The translations under genes and the position numbers were made by a program. The notes under the pieces are model-generated. The model had not been told where the DNA came from, did not search any database, and saw only the letters and a list, made by a program, of their open reading frames with translations. Source: a bacterium (GTDB lineage: Bacteria; Patescibacteriota; Patescibacteriia; PEXW01). Taken from it: a stretch of DNA of 50,738 nucleotides. Below, piece by piece: positions 5,270-50,738 of the stretch. The stretch covers positions 1-50,738 of the forward strand of contig JAUYFT010000026.1 of assembly GCA_030689605.1 (NCBI GenBank). Direction: 5' to 3'. Position 1 is the stretch's first letter, and each line of letters opens with the position of its first letter.

Positions 5270-6592
5270 TCACCGTTGCATTGTTGCCCAAACTTCTTTC
5301 AGGACTACACGGTCATCCCACGGTATAAGTTTTCCATTCGCAACGGCCATAACCTCTTCCCCGCCTTTACCCGTCAGGAGTAGCACATCACCCGCCTGCC
5401 CGAGCTGGAGGAGCTTTGCAATTGCCGCCCGCCGGTCGGTAATGCGGCTGATATTCGCTTTGCCTATTGCTTCGGCGGCCGTGGCAACGTCGGCAATTAT
5501 TTTCTCTGGATCCTCATCGTATGGGTCTTCATTCGTGACGACGACGACATCTGCATGTTCGGCAGCAAGTGCGCCCATCACGCTCCGCTTGGCATGGTCG
5601 CGCCCGCCGCCTTGCGCACCGAGTAACGTTAGGAGGCGCTTCGGTTCGAGTAATCGCACCGCAGCGTACGCCGCCTGCAGGCTCGCGGGTTCATGGCTGT
5701 AGTCGACGAAAACGCGGAACGGCGCGTTGAGTGCCACCTCTTCCATGCGACCAGGTACACCGGGGAAATTCGCCAGCGCAACAGCCGCACGGCTCCGATC
5801 GTAGCCCAGGCCATCCAGCACGGCGAGGGTGGCAAGCGCGTTCTGAACATTGAACGCGCCGAGCAACGGGACAACCCACTGTGCCCCTGCCACCTGGAAG
5901 GTACACTGCGCGGACGTGCAAGCCACCTGCTCTGCGCGCAATATTGCTAAACCCGGGACTGCTTTTACCGAACTGTCCGTTTGGGTGAAGCCTACATGCA
6001 CATCTGCAGCGTGACGGAGGAAAGAGAAAGCGTACGAATCATCAACATTCGCGGCGATGACGGTGGGAATTTTCTTTCCATTTAGGGTCTTCCGCCATGG
6101 CCGGTTTAGGCTGCTAAAAAGGCGCTCCTTCGCTTCGCGGTACATGCGGAAACTGCCGTGGCTCTCCACATGCTCGGGCGTAAGGTTTAGGAACACTGCC
6201 GCGTCGAACGCAATGCCAAGGTGGCGCCCTTGGGCTAACCCTTCAGAGGAAACTTCGAGGACGGTGACAGTGCACCCAGCCTTCACTGCACGCGCGAGGA
6301 AGTGTTGCAACTCGCCCCGGCCAGGCATGGTCAACTTGCTCCGGTTTGGCCAGGTCTTGCCGAGCATCCCCCACTGCACCGTGGATGAGAACGCGACGCG
6401 CTCGCCCAGTGCCGTAAGGCAGTGAGCCAGCATTGCGACGGTTGTGGACTTACCCTTCGTCCCGGTCACGCCAATAACCAGGAGCTTCCGCGCGGGCAAC
6501 CCAGCACGGAGTGCAGCCACACGCGCTTCGAGCACGTGGTATGTATTCACTACTCGCTTCGGAACGATTGCTCTAAGGAGGCGTTTGATCAT
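5270..6592 (-). CDS. Mur ligase family protein (MurE-like central and C-terminal domains, short N-terminus)
   Basis: Motifs seen: P-loop GVTGTKGKSTT, DYSHEP, and C-terminal LLGAQGGGRDHAKR...VVVTNEDPYDEDP. The ORF track starts at 6640. ATG 6592 (MIKRLL) forms an ATGA overlap with the stop of the upstream gene, so it is preferred. Confidence 0.8.
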   Translation of the reverse strand: MIKRLLRAIVPKRVVNTYHVLEARVAALRAGLPARKLLVIGVTGTKGKSTTVAMLAHCLTALGERVAFSSTVQWGMLGKTWPNRSKLTMPGRGELQHFLARAVKAGCTVTVLEVSSEGLAQGRHLGIAFDAAVFLNLTPEHVESHGSFRMYREAKERLFSSLNRPWRKTLNGKKIPTVIAANVDDSYAFSFLRHAADVHVGFTQTDSSVKAVPGLAILRAEQVACTSAQCTFQVAGAQWVVPLLGAFNVQNALATLAVLDGLGYDRSRAAVALANFPGVPGRMEEVALNAPFRVFVDYSHEPASLQAAYAAVRLLEPKRLLTLLGAQGGGRDHAKRSVMGALAAEHADVVVVTNEDPYDEDPEKIIADVATAAEAIGKANISRITDRRAAIAKLLQLGQAGDVLLLTGKGGEEVMAVANGKLIPWDDRVVLKEVWATMQR

Positions 6593-45169: not shown

Positions 45170-45201
45170 CCATGAACCCGAACGAAGTGAGTGGTTCATG
45201 G
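45170..45201 (-). other. Conserved tRNA 3'-trailer hairpin (tRNA-Leu copy)
   Basis: CCATGAACC (45170-78) pairs with GGTTCATGG (45193-201). Flanking blocks GCCATGNACCCGAAC and GTGAGTGGTNCATGGTGC are shared with the Arg copy. Confidence 0.7.
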
Positions 45202-45283
45202 TGCCCAGGAGAGGACTCGAACCTCCACGCCTTGCGGCACGAGGTCCTAAACCTCGCGTGTATACCAATTTCACCACCTGGGC
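45199..45283 (-). tRNA. tRNA-Leu (anticodon UAG), long variable arm, CCA encoded
   Basis: Reverse complement is GCCCAGGTGGTGAAATTGGTATACACGCGAGGTTTAGGACCTCGTGCCGCAAGGCGTGGAGGTTCGAGTCCTCTCCTGGGCACCA. Anticodon loop is TTTAGGA. Confidence 0.9.
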
Positions 45284-45690: not shown

Positions 45691-46727
45691 CCCTCTCGCT
45701 AGTTACGGAGGTTTCTTCTCTGACCCCGCACCCTGCATGTGTAACTCTATCCTTAATTCCGAAGGCCAAGGCGGCTAACACACGTCCCTATTTTTGGAAC
45801 CGGTGTCGTCCCGCCCCAAGCCGCGGGATTTTTGTTTCCCAGCAGAGGCCGTCCTGAGCGTAAGTCGAAGGATCCCTCTGGCGAGAAGCCCACAGCAGCT
45901 CGAACGTTACCAACTGCATAGTGCACGAACATGAATGTATAAGAAAGGTAACGAATAAGCATAAGTAAGTTAGTCTCGGAAATTTCCACACGGTAAGCTG
46001 CAGCCGCAGCGAAGCGTGTCGGACCGTTTCTGGAGACGGGTGACGACCGGTCCGCGCTCAACGTTGATGCGCGCGTGCCATGGTCGCCGCACAAGGGCGT
46101 ACGGTGGATGCCTTGGTACAATATGGCGATGAAGGACGTCGCAGCCTGCGAAAAGCTCCGGGGAGGTGGCAAGCAACCTTTGATCCGGAGATATCCGAAT
46201 GGGGAAACCCTCTACACGGAATGGTGTAGAACGCTATCCTGAATACATAGGGGTAGTGAGCGAACCTGGGGAATTGAAACATCTTAGTACCCAGAGGAAG
46301 AGAAAAAAATGCTGCAGTTATTTGAACAGTGCATCAGCAATGGTGCGCGGTTCATATTCCTGTGGTTATTCCCTGAGTAGTGGCGAGCGAAACGGGAACA
46401 GCTAAAATTTTCGTAGTGTACCCAGCCGCAAGGTTGGGAGAGACGCGTAAGCGGCTGCTACGGAGACGTTGCGAGATGATGTTATCAGAGCTTACGACTC
46501 TGAGGTAGGGACCACGCGGAGTGGTTCTCGGTGTGCCTGCGCAAGCGGGTACAGTGAGAATTATTTCGTTGCGCGTAGTCGAACCGCCTGGAACGGCGGG
46601 CCAAAGACGGTGATAGCCCGGTAGGCGAAACGCGCGAAGCTCTACGACATTTTTCTCGAGTACCGTGGGACACGTGAAATCCTATGGGAACCCGGGACGA
46701 CTACCGTCCCAAAGCTAAATACATATT

Positions 46728-46775
<48 letters not shown>

Positions 46776-48197
46776 GGAAGGGGGATGAAATAGTCTCTGA
46801 AACCGTATGCTTACAAACAGTCGTAGCCCCGCCTCGGCGGGGTCACGGCGTGCCTATTGAAGAATGAACCAACGAGTTTGTTCAGCGGAGTGGGCTAAGG
46901 CCGAGAAGGCCGGAGCCATAGTGAAAGCGAGCGTGTCAAAAGCGCGTACTATAGTTTGAAATGTATTCCGCCGCAAGGCGGACTGCATCTCTTTCTATAA
47001 ACATTCCGTTGACAAGACCCGAAGCCGGGTGATCTACCCATGACCAGGTTGAATCCCGCCGAAAGGCGGGAGGAGGACCGAACCCGTGAGCTGTGCAAAA
47101 CTCTGGGATGAGTTGTGGGTAGCGGAGAAATTCCAATCGAACTCGGCGATAGCTGGTTCTCCTCGAAATAGCTTTAGGGCTAGCGTGGCGTGTTTCCCTG
47201 CGGGGGTAGAGCGACTGAATGGACGTTGATGGCGAAAGCCTACAACGACCAACCAAACTCCGAATACCGCAGGATCTAACGCTGCAGTCAGTCCGTGAGG
47301 TCCAAGCTTCACTGGACGAGAGGGGAAGAACCCATGACCTCCATCTAAGGTCCCGAAGTGGCCGCTCAGTGGTAAAGGTGGTGGGGCGATTGAGACAACG
47401 AGGAGGTTGGCTTAGAAGCAGCCATCCTTTAAAGAAAGCGTAATAGCTCACTCGTCAAATTGCCCTGCGCCGAAAATGTATCGGGGCTCAAGCGGCCCAC
47501 CGAAGTTGAGGATGCCTCGTCGCAAGACGGGGCGTGGTAGAGGAGCGTTCCCAGCAGCGACGAAGCGAGCGTGGAAACTCTCGTGGAGCGCTGGGAAGTG
47601 CGAATGTTGGTATAAGTAACAGAAATGCGGGTGAGAACCCCGCACACCGAAAGTCTAAGGTTTCCTGGGCAACGAAAATCGTCCCAGGGTGAGTCGGTCC
47701 TAAGTCGAGGCCGAAAGGCGTAGATGATGGAGAGCAGGTTAATATTCCTGCACCACGTGATGATTATCCTGACGAGGACACATTTGTGAATTACGCACGG
47801 GATTCGGTTATGCCCGTCCCGCAAGGGGCAGTGGAAGCCGCAAGGTAACCGCAACGCGTATGCAGCAGGTGTCGAGAAAAGTCGTCAGGTTACGTCGTAC
47901 CGTGTCCGTACCGGAAACCGACACAGGTGGACTAGTGTCAACGCACTAAGGTGAACGAGAGAACCCTGGTTTAGGAACTCGGCAAAAAAGCGGCCGTACC
48001 TTCGGTATATGGCCTGCCCCGCCTCTGGCGGGGCTGCAACTAATGATATCAAGTGACTGTTTACCAAAAACACAGGTCCCTGCAAAGCCGAAAGGCAACG
48101 TATAGGGGCTGATGCCTGGCCAGTGTCAGAACGTTAAGGGGAGAGGTGCAAGCCTTGATCCGAAGCGCTGACGAACGCCGGCGATAACTATAATCGT

Positions 48198-48961
48198 TAA
48201 CGACGCTACCGCCACTCATGAAATGGGTGGCAAAAAAGTCAGGGCGATTGTAAAATTCGACTATATGCTGGAATAGCTGTCCCCTCACAGGGGTGAAGTA
48301 TCGTGTGCTACCGAGTAGGTAACAATGCACACGTGCAGCCAATCAGCAGGAAAGACTCCCTAGAATATGCCAAATACCGTGAAAGCAATCCTGACTTCCT
48401 TTCGGGGAAAACGGGAGTTGCTCCACTACTATATTGCGGGACTCGTGGATGGTGAAGGCAGTTTCAGTGTGGCGGTTATCCGCCATCCTTCTCAAACATT
48501 TGGCTGGATGATTAATCCATGCTTCCAAGTGTACCAACACGAAGCACACCGTGAAATTCTTGAACTTTGCCAGTGGGTATTTAAAACCGGCAGCATCTAC
48601 CGCAAGTCTGGGACTAACCATGTTCTGAACTTCAGTATTGATGCTCGCCGCAATCTCTTGGAGAAGGTTATCCCCTTCTTCGACCGGTACCCGCTCATCG
48701 TAAAGCGCGATGCCTATAAATCGTTCCGCACGATTACGAAAGCCATGGAACAAGGCGAGCATCAAACCCGCGAGGGTTTCTGCCGCTTGGTAACGCTGGC
48801 TTTCACGATGAACCAGCAAGGCAAAGGGCGAAAGCATACCCTCGAGTACATCCTCGAGTCGGTAAAAAGTGCTCATGGAGAATCCTCAGAGACTTTACGT
48901 CGAACCCCGCAGGGGCGGGGATGATAAAGTCCACGACCGTAGCGATACGGGTTAGAAAAAG
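48198..48961 (+). mobile_element. Group-I-like intron in 23S at E. coli position ~1923/1924 (H69 3' strand)
   Basis: Exon 1 ends AACTATAATCGT and exon 2 starts CCTAAGGTAGCGAAATTCC. Joining them restores H69 (GGCGA/TCGTC). Exon 1 ends in U and the insert ends in G. AGG-GCGATT (48241-49) can pair with exon 2 CCT (P10) and exon 1 AATCGT (P1, with a U.G pair). Confidence 0.72.
48367..48924 (+). CDS. LAGLIDADG homing endonuclease (single-motif type)
   Basis: YIAGLVDGEGSF motif. It is 185 aa and lies wholly inside the 23S insertion. Confidence 0.88.
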   Translation: MPNTVKAILTSFRGKRELLHYYIAGLVDGEGSFSVAVIRHPSQTFGWMINPCFQVYQHEAHREILELCQWVFKTGSIYRKSGTNHVLNFSIDARRNLLEKVIPFFDRYPLIVKRDAYKSFRTITKAMEQGEHQTREGFCRLVTLAFTMNQQGKGRKHTLEYILESVKSAHGESSETLRRTPQGRG

Positions 48962-49017
<56 letters not shown>

Positions 49018-49528
49018 AACTTGATAACTGTCTCAACCAGGGACTCGGTGAAATTACAAGACGAGTAAAGATGCTCGTTACCCGCAATTAGACGAAAAGA
49101 CCCCATGAAGCTTTACTGTAGTTTGGCATTGTTGACGGGTGTGTGCTGCTGAGAATACGTGGGAGACTTTGAAGTTCTACCTCTGGGTAGGATGGAGTCA
49201 CCAGTGAAATACCACGCTGTGCTCGCACGTCATCTAACGGCATCCCGTTATCCGGGATCCGGACAGTGCCTGATGGGCAGTTTAACTGGGGCGGTTGCCT
49301 CCTAAACGGTAACGGAGGCGTTTACAAAGGTTGGCTACGCACGAATGGAAACCGTGCGCGTCGGGCAAACCCACAAGCCAGCTTGACTGCAAGACCTACA
49401 AGTCGCGCAGCACCGAAAGGTGAAGTTAGTGATCCGACGATCCATTGTAGGATGGTCGAAGCTCAACGGATAAAAGTTACTCTGGGGATAACAGGCTGAT
49501 CGGGTCCAAGAGTCCACATCGACGACCC

Positions 49529-49587
<59 letters not shown>

Positions 49588-49615
49588 TGGCTGTTCGCCA
49601 ATTAAAGCGGTACGT

Positions 49616-49652
<37 letters not shown>

Positions 49653-50084
49653 CTATCTATTGCGGGCGCAGATATTTGCGAAGACTCTTCCCTAGTACGA
49701 GAGGACCGGGAAGGACGAACCTCTGGTGGATGGGTTGTTGTACCAACAGCATTGCCCAGTAGCTACGTTCGGTACGGATAAACGCTGAAAGCATATAAGC
49801 GTGAAGCCGCCTTCTAGATTAGATATCGTTATGAGCTCCCCGGGAGACTACCGGGTTGATAGGCTCTACGTGTAAGACCCGTAAGGGTTTGAGCGGAGGA
49901 GTACTAATCGAGCCAGCGGCAACCATGGGACGCGCTTTCGCAGACCCGGCGAGCAATCGCTGGGCTATCGGAGAGCGTGCACCACAGTCACCCGTTTCCA
50001 AAAGCGGTTCGTAACCTGTACCATTTCCGGTGCAGGGTAAACCTTTCACTTATACATATGTCATTGAAATTTCCCGCCCTCTTT

Positions 50085-50575
50085 AGAAATCTGAAGGGAA
50101 GGCGGGATCCCGCCTCTCGGCGGGATAAACGACGACCGGGCACCGAACTGGTGCTCGCCCTCGTCCTCACTGCCGCGGCCATTGGGCTGGTGCTCTTGCT
50201 GAGCCCCGCCTCCATAGCCGGCGCGCGCTAGAAGCGTTGTAGAACCCTGGTGATTTCCCGCCATCCTTTACAAAATGTACAGGTGGCCCCGCCTTGGCGG
50301 GGCTCCACGGCGGGACAAACGACTGGGTCACACCCGATCCCCCGCCTGCCTCGCCATAGCGAGTTCCTGCCCGCCGTAGTACGGCGTACGCAGGCGGGCG
50401 GCGGGCAGGCATTCCTTGCCCCGCACCTTACAATCATTATTGCAGTCTAGAGTTTCCGGTGCCCCAAACGACTAGGTCACACCCGATCCCATTCCGAACT
50501 CGGAAGTTTCCGCCAGAGGCGGACCCGCCTTTGGCGGGAAGCCGATGAATACCAGCACAATTCTCTAAAAAAGCA
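50085..50575 (+). repeat. Three degenerate 5S-rRNA-like units (A ~50085-50250, B ~50296-50466, C ~50455-50575)
   Basis: The AAACGAC anchor occurs at 50127, 50317 and 50466, with AAGCGAC at 50614 in the true 5S. 50475-50508 is identical to 50623-50656 (34 nt). Unit B keeps GGGTCACACCCGATCCC and a 3' AGAGTTTCCGGTGCCCC but has a foreign GC-rich hairpin core. Confidence 0.65.
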
Positions 50576-50602
50576 TAATGACAATTCATTCGATTCAATG
50601 TT

Positions 50603-50710
50603 CTGGGTGTCTCAAGCGACGGGGTCACACCCGATCCCATTCCGAACTCGGAAGTTAAGCCCGTCCGCGCTGATGGTACTCCTTTCGGGGGAGAGTAGGC
50701 CGGTGCCCAG
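50603..50710 (+). rRNA. rrf: 5S rRNA
   Basis: The sequence CTGGGTGTCTCAAGCGACGGGGTCACACCCGATCCCATTCCGAACTCGGAAGTTAAGCCCGTCCGCGCTGATGGTACTCC...GAGAGTAGGCCGGTGCCCAG aligns with bacterial 5S. Helix I closes with G.U pairs. It is flanked by a perfect 14-bp inverted repeat. Confidence 0.88.
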
Positions 50711-50738
50711 TACATTGAATCGAATATAGCGCTGATGG

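Follow-up and report, generated by a model that had tools for sequence, protein, structure and literature searches.

The RPE of Rickettsia are short palindromic repeats of a reduced genome, about 100-150 nt long and restricted to Rickettsia, which are tolerated in frame within protein genes and occur in RNA genes as well. The REP/REPIN-RAYT systems comprise dispersed GC-rich hairpins, often arranged as doublets; REPs are extragenic and, to our knowledge, do not leave gene remnants behind. The RtT/TLR repeats of enterobacterial tRNA operons are spacer repeats of stable-RNA operons and include a piece of the adjacent RNA gene, in which they resemble the locus described here, but RtT units carry 3'-end fragments, with neither inserted hairpins nor a nested intact gene. 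Double-hairpin elements are present in the mitochondrial DNA of Allomyces and other fungi. GC clusters of yeast mitochondrial DNA are described as GC-rich palindromic mobile elements (PMC4478555; PMC7218506). Such clusters and double hairpins are comparable to ours in their length of about 30-50 nt and in their location in intergenic DNA and rRNA genes; the difference is that they are organellar, sit in tolerant variable regions of rRNA and come without replacement copies or nested genes. In CPR bacteria, two studies of rRNA insertions and introns deal with elements of at least 100 bp within one copy of the 16S or 23S gene (PMC11270868; PMC9297842), and a survey of 645 5S genes reported no insertions (PMC11270868). 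The 5S gene of these bacteria is treated as single-copy, vertically inherited and insertion-free, and a limited literature search turned up no published account of hairpin-bearing bacterial 5S remnants.

The same organisms, and the same operon, are concerned here. The window is a stretch of 50,738 nt (contig JAUYFT010000026.1 of GenBank assembly GCA_030689605.1, Patescibacteriota), in which all parts of the spacer and of the 5S region described below lie on the forward strand. Its spacer between the 23S and 5S genes measures 675 nt (49928-50602), compared to 109-502 nt in relatives, in agreement with a first-pass annotation, which had estimated about 670 nt and had described an array of three degenerate 5S-like units (A, B and C) anchored on AAACGAC at 50127, 50317 and 50466; the sequence indeed reads AAACGAC at these three positions. 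The spacer contains one small membrane-peptide gene and the 5' portions of two older 5S genes, which are broken by hairpins. We hold with moderate confidence that it consists of remnants of successive 5S genes, which RPE/REP-like hairpins disrupted and which gave way to intact copies that are divergent and probably imported, and that these remnants are not working RNAs. The segments between the 5S copies (97-150 nt) contain chance frames only and no other ORF. An ORF scan found neither a tyrosine nor a serine integrase gene in them, and an integrase inside the array, as in an island with att duplication, is therefore rejected. No other Rfam family has a convincing match in the spacer (Acido-Lenti-1, Guanidine-I, mir-1909 and GRIK4 appear at chance-level E-values of 0.15-6), and RtT (RF00391) has no match there.

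The 23S-proximal part of the spacer (49928-50057) begins after the last nucleotide of the 23S gene at 49927 and contains a conserved motif, CACCCGTTTCCAAAAGCGGTT, at 49989-50009; positions 57-94 of the spacer query have matches at the same place in four related genomes (G003, G004, G007 and G009). Next comes an open frame of 57 codons (50058-50231; MSLK[FPALFRNLKGRRDPASRRD]KRRPGTELVLALVLTAAAIGLVLLLSPASIAGAR, followed by a stop), which encodes a conserved peptide of single-pass membrane type. Orthologous ORFs occupy the same spacer position in the same four genomes, and a similar ORF occurs at locus L082. The DNA is 67% identical to that of G009, with the peptide pattern L.L.LT..AI..VLL.SP..I being kept, and a Pfam search with the peptides returned nothing at cut-off. 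After codon 4, the frame carries an in-frame insert of 54-57 nt, the hairpin element HP2 (50070-50126, TTTCCCGCC..GGCGGGA TCCCGCCtctcGGCGGGA; DNA fold z-score -3.6), which is not present in the orthologous ORFs of the relatives and which leaves the frame open in an RPE-like manner. This ORF takes the place of unit A, which had been presented as a more eroded 5S copy. At about 50127-50250, the covariance model gave nothing at E<=10 and blastn-short nothing at E<=0.05, and the AAACGAC motif encodes K-R-R of the conserved peptide. A 5S relic is thereby ruled out: unit A is a protein-coding gene and is not derived from 5S.

Unit B lies directly 3' of the small ORF, and in G003 and G004 the small ORF is likewise followed by a single 5S gene. 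The unit starts at 50232, upstream of where it had been placed at first: its leader (AAGCGTTGTAGAAC) and 5S nt 1-10 (CCTGGTGATT) form a first part (50232-50255), as identified by the spliced match to G004, ahead of a 60-nt branched hairpin that resembles HP2 (50256-50315; fold z-score -4.2). This hairpin is inserted at 5S nt 10^11, its ends repeat those of HP2 (repeat families D4 and D5), and the empty site is seen in the 5S gene of G004. Three further loci (L077, L079 and L091) have hairpins after TCTGGTGATT, at approximately the same 5S position. The second part of the unit, 5S nt 11-36 (CAAACGACTGGGTCACACCCGATCCC, 50316-50341), is recovered both by blastn and by the spliced match and is followed, at about nt 36, by an HP3 insert (50342-50409), in which a 33-nt hairpin is nested in the basic 35-nt HP3 (CCGCCTGCCTCGCCATAGCGAGTTC..GGCGGGCAGG). 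HP3 is found at the same 5S position in G009 (91% identity), and repeat search and folding both recover the GC-rich hairpin CCTGCCCGCC/GGCGGGCAGG that had been noticed within the unit. What remains is CATTCC (50410-50415), in which ATTCC corresponds to 5S nt 37-41; the HP3 boundary is ambiguous by one base, hence the initial C is possibly nt 36. The equivalent residual piece in G007 and G009 reads CATCCC.

When both inserts (50256-50315 and 50342-50409) are taken out, 54/54 positions of unit B are identical to the leader and 5S nt 1-39 of G004, the same-genus genome that served as reference for the spliced comparison, although this number is not overwhelming for an rRNA gene; the intact gene of the window has only 78% identity to G004 over that span. 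On the strength of this match, unit B is judged to be the native, syntenic 5S gene of the genus, now broken by two hairpins and cut off after nt 41. Its 5S origin is thus supported by the spliced alignment and by blastn (22 nt, 95%, E 4e-5), but not by the Rfam model, which gives no match at E<=10. The 5S-like 3' end that had been assigned to the unit, AGAGTTTCCGGTGCCCC, turned out to be the leader and the 5' strand of helix I of unit C, and leader and helix I of this type also occur in functional 5S genes of G009 and G010.

Unit C is preceded by the left end of what would be a second-generation insert (50416-50441), which is composed of TTG, an HP4-type arm (CCCCGCACC) and an AT-rich spacer and is 87% identical to the corresponding segment of G009. 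An inverted counterpart of the arm (GGTGCGGGG / TGCGGG) lies on the far side of the inner 5S in G007 and G009, and the same arms, TCCCGCACC/GGTGCGGGA, also bracket an intact tRNA-Pro gene on contig C2 of this genome. The leader of unit C (GCAGTCTAGAGTT, 50442-50454) is of the type of functional 5S genes in genera g2 and g3. In the 5S part (nt 1-54, 50455-50508), nt 1-20 are of the g2/g3 type and nt 21-54 are identical to the intact gene, which confirms the perfect 34-mer that had been seen to be shared with it (50475-50508 = 50623-50656; blastn-short E 1e-14). Leader and nt 1-54 together are 90% identical to G009 and 87% to G010, and 46/54 nucleotides agree with the resident 5S gene. Unit C looks foreign, in that its leader and helix I are of a kind that characterises other genera within the family. 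A 30-nt double hairpin had been reported straight after GGAAGTT, and is there: HP1 (TCCGCCagaGGCGGA CCCGCCtttGGCGGG, 50509-50538; DNA fold z-score -4.6) is inserted at 5S nt 54^55, and the following nt 55-60 (AAGCCG, 50539-50544) are the last stretch with 5S similarity.

The AT-rich spacer that separates unit C from the intact 5S gene (50545-50587) has no notable ORF and no Rfam match. The intact gene with its leader and trailer extends over 50588-50725; the 5S itself (50603-50711), which had been recognised as the true copy 3' of the array, matches the Rfam 5S model over its full length with 81.5 bits, and the leader (ATTCGATTCAATGT, 50588-50602) and trailer (50712-50725) clamp it by a stem of 14-20 bp, as indicated by inverted repeat and fold. 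Run unit by unit, the same model bears out the claimed 5S likeness only in part: unit C reaches 28.9 bits (model positions 25-54, E 1e-3), which is below the gathering score of 38 bits, and A and B give no match at E<=10. Units B and C are 5S fragments with respect to RF00001, as neither has a full-length match of at least 38 bits, and only the 5' strand of helix I of either unit lies inside the window; the 3' strands may be past the contig end. The model also misses most 5S fragments in relatives, which were therefore searched for by blastn and pattern scans.

Each of the three 5S copies has a leader and a helix-I type of its own. The 5' end type of the intact gene (<=3 mismatches) is found in 6 genomes of other families and in 0/11 of its own family, and its helices I and II differ from those of all family members by compensated changes; 5S sequences are short, and the likeness to other families could be convergence. 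A purely local origin would require none of the copies to be imported: the 5S gene would have been duplicated in tandem in place, and redundant upstream copies would have been colonised by hairpins and eroded by deletion, with differences between the copies due to divergence and gene conversion and without any coupling between hairpins and duplication. Several observations fit this scenario. A 51-nt repeat family recurs at 50309, 50458 and 50606 with a near-equal spacing of 149 and 148 nt, the central 34 nt of unit C and the intact gene are identical, and G009 has two identical 120-nt units. Moreover, the fragments at L081 and L096 are perfect copies arranged locally in tandem, which share their leader with the intact gene and differ in number between the two loci (2 vs 3), so local duplication certainly contributes in some lineages. 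For the present locus, we nevertheless consider it improbable, if far from negligible, as the whole explanation. The leaders of the three copies are unrelated, and the broken unit B has zero changes relative to G004, whereas the selected intact gene has about 20 differences, some of them in compensated pairs, and a 14-bp clamp that is new; duplication followed by decay would predict the opposite. An independent case of the same pattern is G243 (Falkowbacteria), in which a fragment tagged by HP1 agrees at 54/54 positions with the only 5S gene of the sister species G141 and has the same leader, while the intact 5S of G243 differs from this fragment by compensated changes in helix III. Also, the block of HP3, CATyCC, TTGCCCCGCAC, spacer and leader is identical at 113/127 positions (89%) between this genome (G000) and G009, a member of another genus, at the same 5S site, yet the ORF adjoining it is only 67% identical between the two. 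Finally, the site of HP1 and the break beyond it are recurrent: HP1 is found at AGTT^AAGC, the same 5S position 54^55, in 12 loci, AAGC follows it in 11/11 loci with an upstream fragment, and in the eight loci that were compared at single-base level the likeness to the resident 5S ends 4-6 nt past HP1. A shared leader, with units that are each other's closest relatives, is found only in L081 and L096 and not here. The initial suggestion of decaying 5S duplicates is thus correct in spirit for units B and C, but the locus is not a simple tandem array, because there are three leader and helix-I types, unit B is native by its 54/54 match to G004, and the intact copy is divergent.

Replacement of successive 5S genes, which we prefer, could have proceeded in generations. 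In each of these, a 5S gene that bears a hairpin would be broken or become redundant, and a replacement gene equipped with a processing stem of its own would come to lie within it or just 3' of it; the hairpin may have come before the replacement or after it. The source of the replacement would probably be imported DNA, taken up by recombination via the conserved 5S flanks or captured beside the hairpin. At the locus described here, unit B is interrupted after nt 41 by a block starting at the arm CCCCGCACC, and this block contains the second 5S, unit C, which for its part bears HP1 at nt 54^55, ends at nt 60 and is succeeded by the third, intact 5S. Only cells with one intact copy would survive selection, so that exactly one intact gene would be left and the older pieces would stay as remnants. 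The + strand has no terminator-like site between 23S and 5S, which makes co-transcription plausible; the whole spacer is probably transcribed with both genes, and the clamp of the intact gene would direct maturation while the remnants are discarded.

The complete form of such an arrangement is present in relatives, where an older 5S is split into 5' and 3' pieces with an intact 5S between them. The outer 5S of G007 can be rebuilt from 4 pieces and is then 107/109 identical to the inner one, the outer 5S of L095 can be rebuilt from 3 pieces and has its own compensated helix I, and L082 is nested as well. Remnants of 3' parts are found downstream in G007, G009, L082, L095 and L069. The window stops 27 nt past the intact 5S, so that the predicted 3' remnants of units C and B are out of view, and their only hint is the 10-nt GCGCTGATGG at 50729-50738, which equals nt 65-74 of the intact 5S (50667-50676; repeat family D8). 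By analogy with the relatives, a 3' remnant located downstream probably starts with GCGCTGATGG. If the nesting is as assumed, the trailer would be followed by the rest of unit C (GCGCTGATGG...GGTGCCGGG, then ACTCTAGACTGC), a GGTGCGGGG-like arm and the rest of unit B (CGAACTCGGAAGTTAAGCCAGTCAGTGC..., then GTTCTACAACGCTT). A search of the other 32 contigs for a continuation of the array (trailer complements, 5S 3' parts and contig ends) yielded nothing.

A contig that ends inside a 5S repeat, in a metagenome-assembled genome of 33 contigs, raises the question of an assembly artefact, in which the conserved 5S core would have led to a chimera or a false join between reads of several co-occurring populations. 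The three copies do resemble 5S types of different lineages, and an assembled 5S is missing in 6/12 genomes of the family. A chimeric join via the shared core would, however, produce one hybrid 5S rather than fragments that end in hairpins, and the junctions are located at the hairpin elements, outside the shared cores of 34-51 nt. Equivalent arrays are found in at least 12 independent loci, and one array is near-identical in five separate data sets: the Nomurabacteria array, which is present in a GenBank MAG and in four separate metagenome contigs. We therefore regard an artefact as very improbable and as the least likely of the explanations considered.

The units could also be functional as co-transcribed RNAs derived from 5S, e.g., helix III-loop C decoys for uL5/uL18 or processing scaffolds for the intact 5S. 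The helix III-loop C hairpin is intact in unit C, the 5' part of unit B shows no change from a functional ortholog, the units and the rRNA genes have no terminator between them, and the layout is recurrent in many lineages. Against this, the retained segments vary by locus (L079 and L091 keep only nt 40-54, G007 keeps the 3' part instead), the close relatives G003, G004 and G010 manage without any unit, and a second 5S match occurs in only about 10/171 genomes of the class that have a 5S match. The same hairpin repeats also sit in ORFs and tRNA remnants. On balance, a function of the units seems very unlikely.

The hairpins themselves are not confined to the units. They are members of at least four families (HP1-HP4) of small GC-rich hairpins that are scattered in the genome, with HP1 occurring throughout the class. 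The sites include ORFs, in which the hairpins lie in frame, tRNA-gene copies and 5S copies. HP1 has 6 strict copies plus variants in the 644 kb of this genome and is found in 58/151 genomes of the class, compared to 0 for a reversed-pattern control. Five further copies of HP2 (C2:15477, C10:8460, C17:10059, C18:9825 and C33:2139) and two of the basic HP3 (C28:26361 and C18:6496) are present in this genome, and basic HP3 also occurs in G005, G006 and G009. The likeness to RPE rests on HP2, which is in frame in the small ORF, and on the 30-nt HP1, which in related genomes lies within stop-free frames of 450-930 codons (L032, L034, L046, L048 and L057); an HP1 copy in a protein gene of this genome (C2:19391) is located in a hypervariable linker, so that its comparison with five same-genus genomes is not clean. 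Compared by description, HP1-HP4 differ from RPE in being 30-60 nt long and very GC-rich, in their recurrent 5S sites and in occurring together with copies of the host RNA gene that are partial or nested. This layout of 5' gene fragment, hairpin(s) and intact gene is shared by the 5S array and a tRNA-Leu gene in the window, and is found in the same genome at tRNA-Pro (twice) and tRNA-Tyr genes.

HP1 resembles REP/REPIN sequences in consisting of many dispersed short GC-rich palindromes, and three genes for RAYT-like Y1_Tnp proteins, in which HUH and Tyr motifs are present, make candidates for moving the hairpins. Most copies of HP1 and HP2 have a T or TT directly in front of them, similar to the short targets at which the IS200/IS605 family inserts. 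In contrast to the extragenic REPs, however, the HP copies are located inside the small ORF, long stop-free frames and tRNA and 5S copies, they have no GTAG motif, and none of HP1-HP4 lies within 400 nt of a Y1-transposase ORF (0/3); the gene on C28 is flanked by unrelated AT-rich GTAG hairpins. A nuclease inside the array was considered as well and is rejected, as no GIY-YIG ORF is found in 49928-50602; the only matches in the genome are C12:45335, C12:32229 and C10:6504. A bolder possibility, which we put forward tentatively and think doubtful, is that the inner blocks are a self-complementing mobile cassette, which invades essential single-copy RNA genes at conserved, hairpin-marked sites, carries a working copy together with its processing stem and thereby lets the host survive, and spreads between genera via conserved flanks or a trans-acting hairpin-specific enzyme. 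If this were true, 5S alleles would be replaced serially and horizontally, and Russian-doll nests of genes (5S here, tRNAs elsewhere) would result.

Taken with the relatives, these loci show, on the reading preferred here, a 5S gene that is repeatedly struck by tiny hairpins and replaced; all that is left of the native gene is a tagged stump, and the working copy is a divergent one. Interrupted copies of this kind escape detection because the copy that scores is a separate, intact one, and this matters for annotation, since standard model searches do not see copies that are nested or fragmentary. There are consequences, too, for phylogenetic work with rRNA genes as markers, and assembly may suffer, given that the contig breaks at the repeat; the 5S genes missing in the family may be ordinary dropout of rRNA operons in MAGs. 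The loci also bear on the tolerance of mobile DNA in essential RNA genes of reduced genomes, and the recurrent 54^55 site could serve as a concrete substrate in a search for the enzyme that mobilises them. As a separate observation, the 23S gene of the window also contains insertions, with a length of 3847 nt against a model of 2925 positions.

The 23S gene (46081-49927, forward strand, Rfam match) is followed on the same strand by only one full-length 5S gene (50603-50711, Rfam match, 81.5 bits), in a CPR/Patescibacteria MAG of 644 kb in 33 contigs with a G+C content of 55%. At 109 nt, this 5S is of the short Parcubacteria type (PMC9297842). The 23S-5S spacer measures 675 nt from the Rfam gene ends, which bears out the length of about 670 nt given in the first-pass annotation, and spans 109-502 nt in the relatives compared (five of the same family and G025, from another family in the class). 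A repeat search revealed a 20-nt inverted repeat that clamps the intact 5S, as well as a 51-nt repeat family with copies at 50309, 50458 and 50606 (spacings of 149 and 148 nt). Three 5S-like units, A, B and C, had been placed in the spacer; their coordinates, and a perfect 34-mer shared by unit C and the true 5S, were correct by sequence check and blastn. In a permissive Rfam scan of 49900-50738, a second 5S match appeared at 50479-50508 only (model positions 25-54, 28.9 bits, E 1e-3), i.e., the covariance model matches part of unit C and neither unit A nor unit B; no Rfam family matched any of the hairpins in this interval. The spacer feature is real and beyond chance. The 23S itself spans 3847 nt against a model of 2925 positions, a surplus of about 900 nt; upstream of it 16S is absent, and a tRNA-Leu gene (45199-45283, opposite strand) lies between. 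Contigs C12 (the window's contig) and C32 probably adjoin each other in the genome, their nucleotides 1-21 being reverse-complementary.

Unit A, described earlier as an eroded 5S copy, is instead a conserved small ORF and no 5S relic. The ORF runs in frame +1 from ATG at 50058 to TAG at 50231 (forward strand) and encodes MSLKFPALFRNLKGRRDPASRRDKRRPGTELVLALVLTAAAIGLVLLLSPASIAGAR-stop. Its ortholog in G004, a genome of the same genus, lies in the corresponding part of the 23S-5S spacer (MKKQRRPGAELVLALVLTAAAIALVLLVSPSSIIAAQ-stop), and G003 (same genus), G007 and G009 (same family) have their own versions at this position. Across these five genomes the ORFs comprise 37-57 codons and specify a single-pass membrane-type peptide; a similar ORF occurs in L082, a locus of an unrelated Patescibacteria MAG. 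Compared with G009, DNA identity is just 67% and the peptide pattern is retained, which argues that the ORF is a coding sequence, and the peptides matched no Pfam family. The AAACGAC motif at 50127 codes for K-R-R of this ORF, and the CCCGCC/GGCGGG hairpins just 5' of it (50070-50126) constitute a frame-preserving insert (HP2, 54-57 nt) that is missing in the orthologs.

Judged by comparison with relatives, unit B is the native 5S, interrupted at two places. The small ORF of G003 and G004 is directly followed by a leader, AAGCGTTGTAGAAC, and a single 5S. In the window, this leader and 5S nt 1-10 occupy 50232-50255 and are followed, all on the forward strand, by a branched hairpin of 60 nt (50256-50315), 5S nt 11-36 (50316-50341, by sequence comparison), the 68-nt hairpin block HP3 (50342-50409) and CATTCC, the last five bases of which are 5S nt 37-41. 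Without the two inserts, unit B is identical to G004 at 54/54 positions, whereas the intact gene and its leader reach only 78% identity over the same span. The 5S origin claimed for unit B is thereby upheld; its supposed 3' end is not. Downstream of CATTCC follow TTG, CCCCGCACC, an AT-rich spacer and GCAGTCTAGAGTT-TCCGGTGCCCCAAACGAC, which is the leader and 5S 5' end of functional genes in G009 and G010 (same family), and what was taken for the end of unit B is thus the start of unit C. Sequence comparison follows unit C (forward strand) up to 5S nt 54 at 50508, directly after which comes HP1, a 30-nt double hairpin (50509-50538, forward strand), and then AAGCCG (5S nt 55-60), where 5S similarity stops. 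The last bases of the window, GCGCTGATGG, repeat 5S nt 65-74, so that a 3' remnant probably begins there, 27 nt past the 5S being the window's end. This remnant probably broke the assembly, in which no continuation of the array beyond the contig end was found.

The hairpins are insertions, as filled and empty sites between orthologs demonstrate, and they are dispersed repeats. HP1 has further copies in the genome at C2:2736, C2:19391, C5:10177, C8:13539 and C11:11988 and variants at C7:386 and C11:6473; HP2, another small GC-rich family, has five additional copies, and HP3 recurs at C28:26361 and C18:6496 as well as in three other genomes (G005, G006 and G009). A strict HP1 pattern was found in 58/151 genomes of the class (reversed control, 0). 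In other genomes HP1 often lies within stop-free frames of 450-930 codons, and 5/30 sampled copies were within ~100 nt of a tRNA gene. Fold z-scores against shuffles were -3.6 to -4.6 for HP1, HP2 and the 60-nt insert, and weaker for HP3 (-2.2). The behaviour of the hairpins resembles that of Rickettsia palindromic elements, of REP/REPIN elements and of mitochondrial GC clusters/double-hairpin elements; to our knowledge, nested or replaced host genes have not been reported for any of these. The genome contains three RAYT-like ORFs of the Y1 transposase type and three GIY-YIG matches, none of them linked to the hairpins. The Y1 (HUH) ORFs, ~175-181 aa each in a 0.64-Mb genome, lie at C17:12912-13457 (+), C28:28911-29438 (+) and C33 (Pfam match 6338-6508, -); AT-rich GGAGTAGAGACTTTAGTCTCT hairpins border the C28 gene in a GTAG-plus-hairpin arrangement like that of classical REPs. 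The HP2 copies (C2:15477, C10:8460, C17:10059, C18:9825, C33:2139) have direct repeats of ATTCGTAATTCGTA(TA) on both flanks, as does HP1 at C11:11996, a conserved intergenic module. G141, sister species of the Falkowbacteria MAG G243, has a tandem array of three identical HP1 copies spaced exactly 68 nt apart (C3:44956-45119).

Nesting of 5S inside 5S exists in relatives. The outer 5S of G007, with matched leader and trailer, is split by insertion at three points into four pieces, the inserts being a hairpin, a block CCCCGCACC...GGTGCGGGG holding a whole inner 5S, and HP1 between 5S nt 54 and 55 (54^55); rejoined, it is identical to the inner 5S at 107/109 positions. Loci L095 and L082 are nested as well, with a compensated helix I particular to each outer and each inner gene. 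G009 carries two identical 120-nt units (5S nt 1-36, HP3, CATCCC, TTGCCCCGCAC, spacer and leader), 3' of which lie an intact 5S and a diverged 3' remnant; in another comparison genome, G216, a downstream 3' remnant carries a further hairpin. A search pattern that runs from 5S loop C into the beginning of HP1 recovered the junction AGTT^HP1^AAGC in GenBank MAGs labelled Buchananbacteria, Nomurabacteria, Parcubacteria and Falkowbacteria, two labelled Patescibacteria, an Ignavibacteriae-labelled contig and several metagenome contigs, amounting to 12 loci with the window and G007. The HP1-tagged fragment is upstream of an intact gene in 11/12, and base-by-base comparison at eight loci puts the end of its 5S similarity 4-6 nt past the hairpin. 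Five independent assemblies contain the Nomurabacteria array in near-identical form, which argues against the phenomenon in general being an artefact. Three further loci (L077, L079, L091) have hairpins after TCTGGTGATT, at about the 5S position of the window's 60-nt insert. A survey of rRNA insertions in CPR bacteria found 0/645 5S genes with an insertion (PMC11270868), which implies that interrupted 5S copies have escaped notice.

In two independent cases, unit B and a fragment in G243, the broken copy is by its sequence the native one: the G243 fragment matches the only 5S of G141 at 54/54 positions and shares its leader, and the intact 5S of G243 shows compensated helix III changes relative to the fragment. 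Moreover, the insert block at the same 5S site is 113/127 identical between the window and G009, which belong to different genera, and the intact gene's 5' end type was present in six genomes from outside its family and in 0/11 from within it; both observations favour import. We consider hairpin-tagged remnants of replaced 5S genes the best account of the spacer, and a somewhat probable one. It is limited by the shortness of the sequences compared and by the window ending ahead of the predicted 3' remnants. Its main rival, a purely local duplication followed by decay, appears rather improbable: perfect units in varying copy number at loci L081 and L096 speak for it, and point to local unequal crossing-over also taking place, but the functional gene has changed at ~20 positions and the pseudogene at none, the reverse of what duplication and decay predicts and a further argument for import, and the broken copies equal G004 and G141. 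The decaying 5S duplicates initially proposed thus survive in part, as 5S remnants in units B and C, without unit A and probably without simple duplication as their origin. Under replacement, a 5S with its own processing stem would have come to lie within, or immediately 3' of, a gene that bore a hairpin. Foreign rRNA-operon DNA may have been taken up and recombined through conserved flanks, which would explain the chimeric unit C (nt 1-20 foreign-looking, nt 21-54 resident-looking); alternatively, the gene may have been captured at a break beside a hairpin. Since 23S and 5S are not separated by any terminator-like site in the window, the remnants are probably part of the transcript and discarded during maturation.

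The same layout is found at tRNA genes of this genome, with hairpin-interrupted partial copies of tRNA-Pro(tgg), tRNA-Pro(ggg) and tRNA-Tyr. At C2:2560-3000 (-), an intact tRNA-Pro has on its 5' side a 5' fragment of tRNA-Pro, a hairpin and the arm TCCCGCACCA, and on its 3' side the arm in inverted form (GTGGTGCGGGA), HP1 and the rest of an older tRNA-Pro body with another hairpin in its T loop; the arms bracket the intact gene inside the D loop of the older copy. An identical 5' module (CGGGGTGTGGCGCAGTT, CCCCGCC..GGCGGGG and TAAAGTCCGCGCG) is present at the second tRNA-Pro locus, C4:8350-8700 (-). At C18:18450-18900 (-), tRNA-Tyr is followed by hairpin-interrupted copies, and the window's tRNA-Leu has a GIY-YIG version of the layout.

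Related arrangements were observed elsewhere. The Ignavibacteriae-labelled contig RPQN01000255 (2200-2420; L084/L099) has a canonical 117-nt 5S beside 23S and, ~1.1 kb downstream, a second 5S-like copy, Parcubacteria-like in sequence, in which HP1 occupies 54^55 and an additional TCCCGCC hairpin is present; this copy may be a transferred remnant, or the contig may be mis-binned. On the 3' side of the 5S in G004 (L013, 1607-1730), the trailer and T-run (TGCAACGCTTTTTT) are duplicated around a nested hairpin (CCCCGCAAACG../TCCCGCC..GGCGGGA), a hairpin-plus-flank duplication. In G243 (L066, 700-900), the 5S 3' end and terminator (GACATTGCCAGTTTAACAAAAAGAACT) recur ~170 nt further downstream, past two GCCCTGAGC..GAAGGG hairpins.
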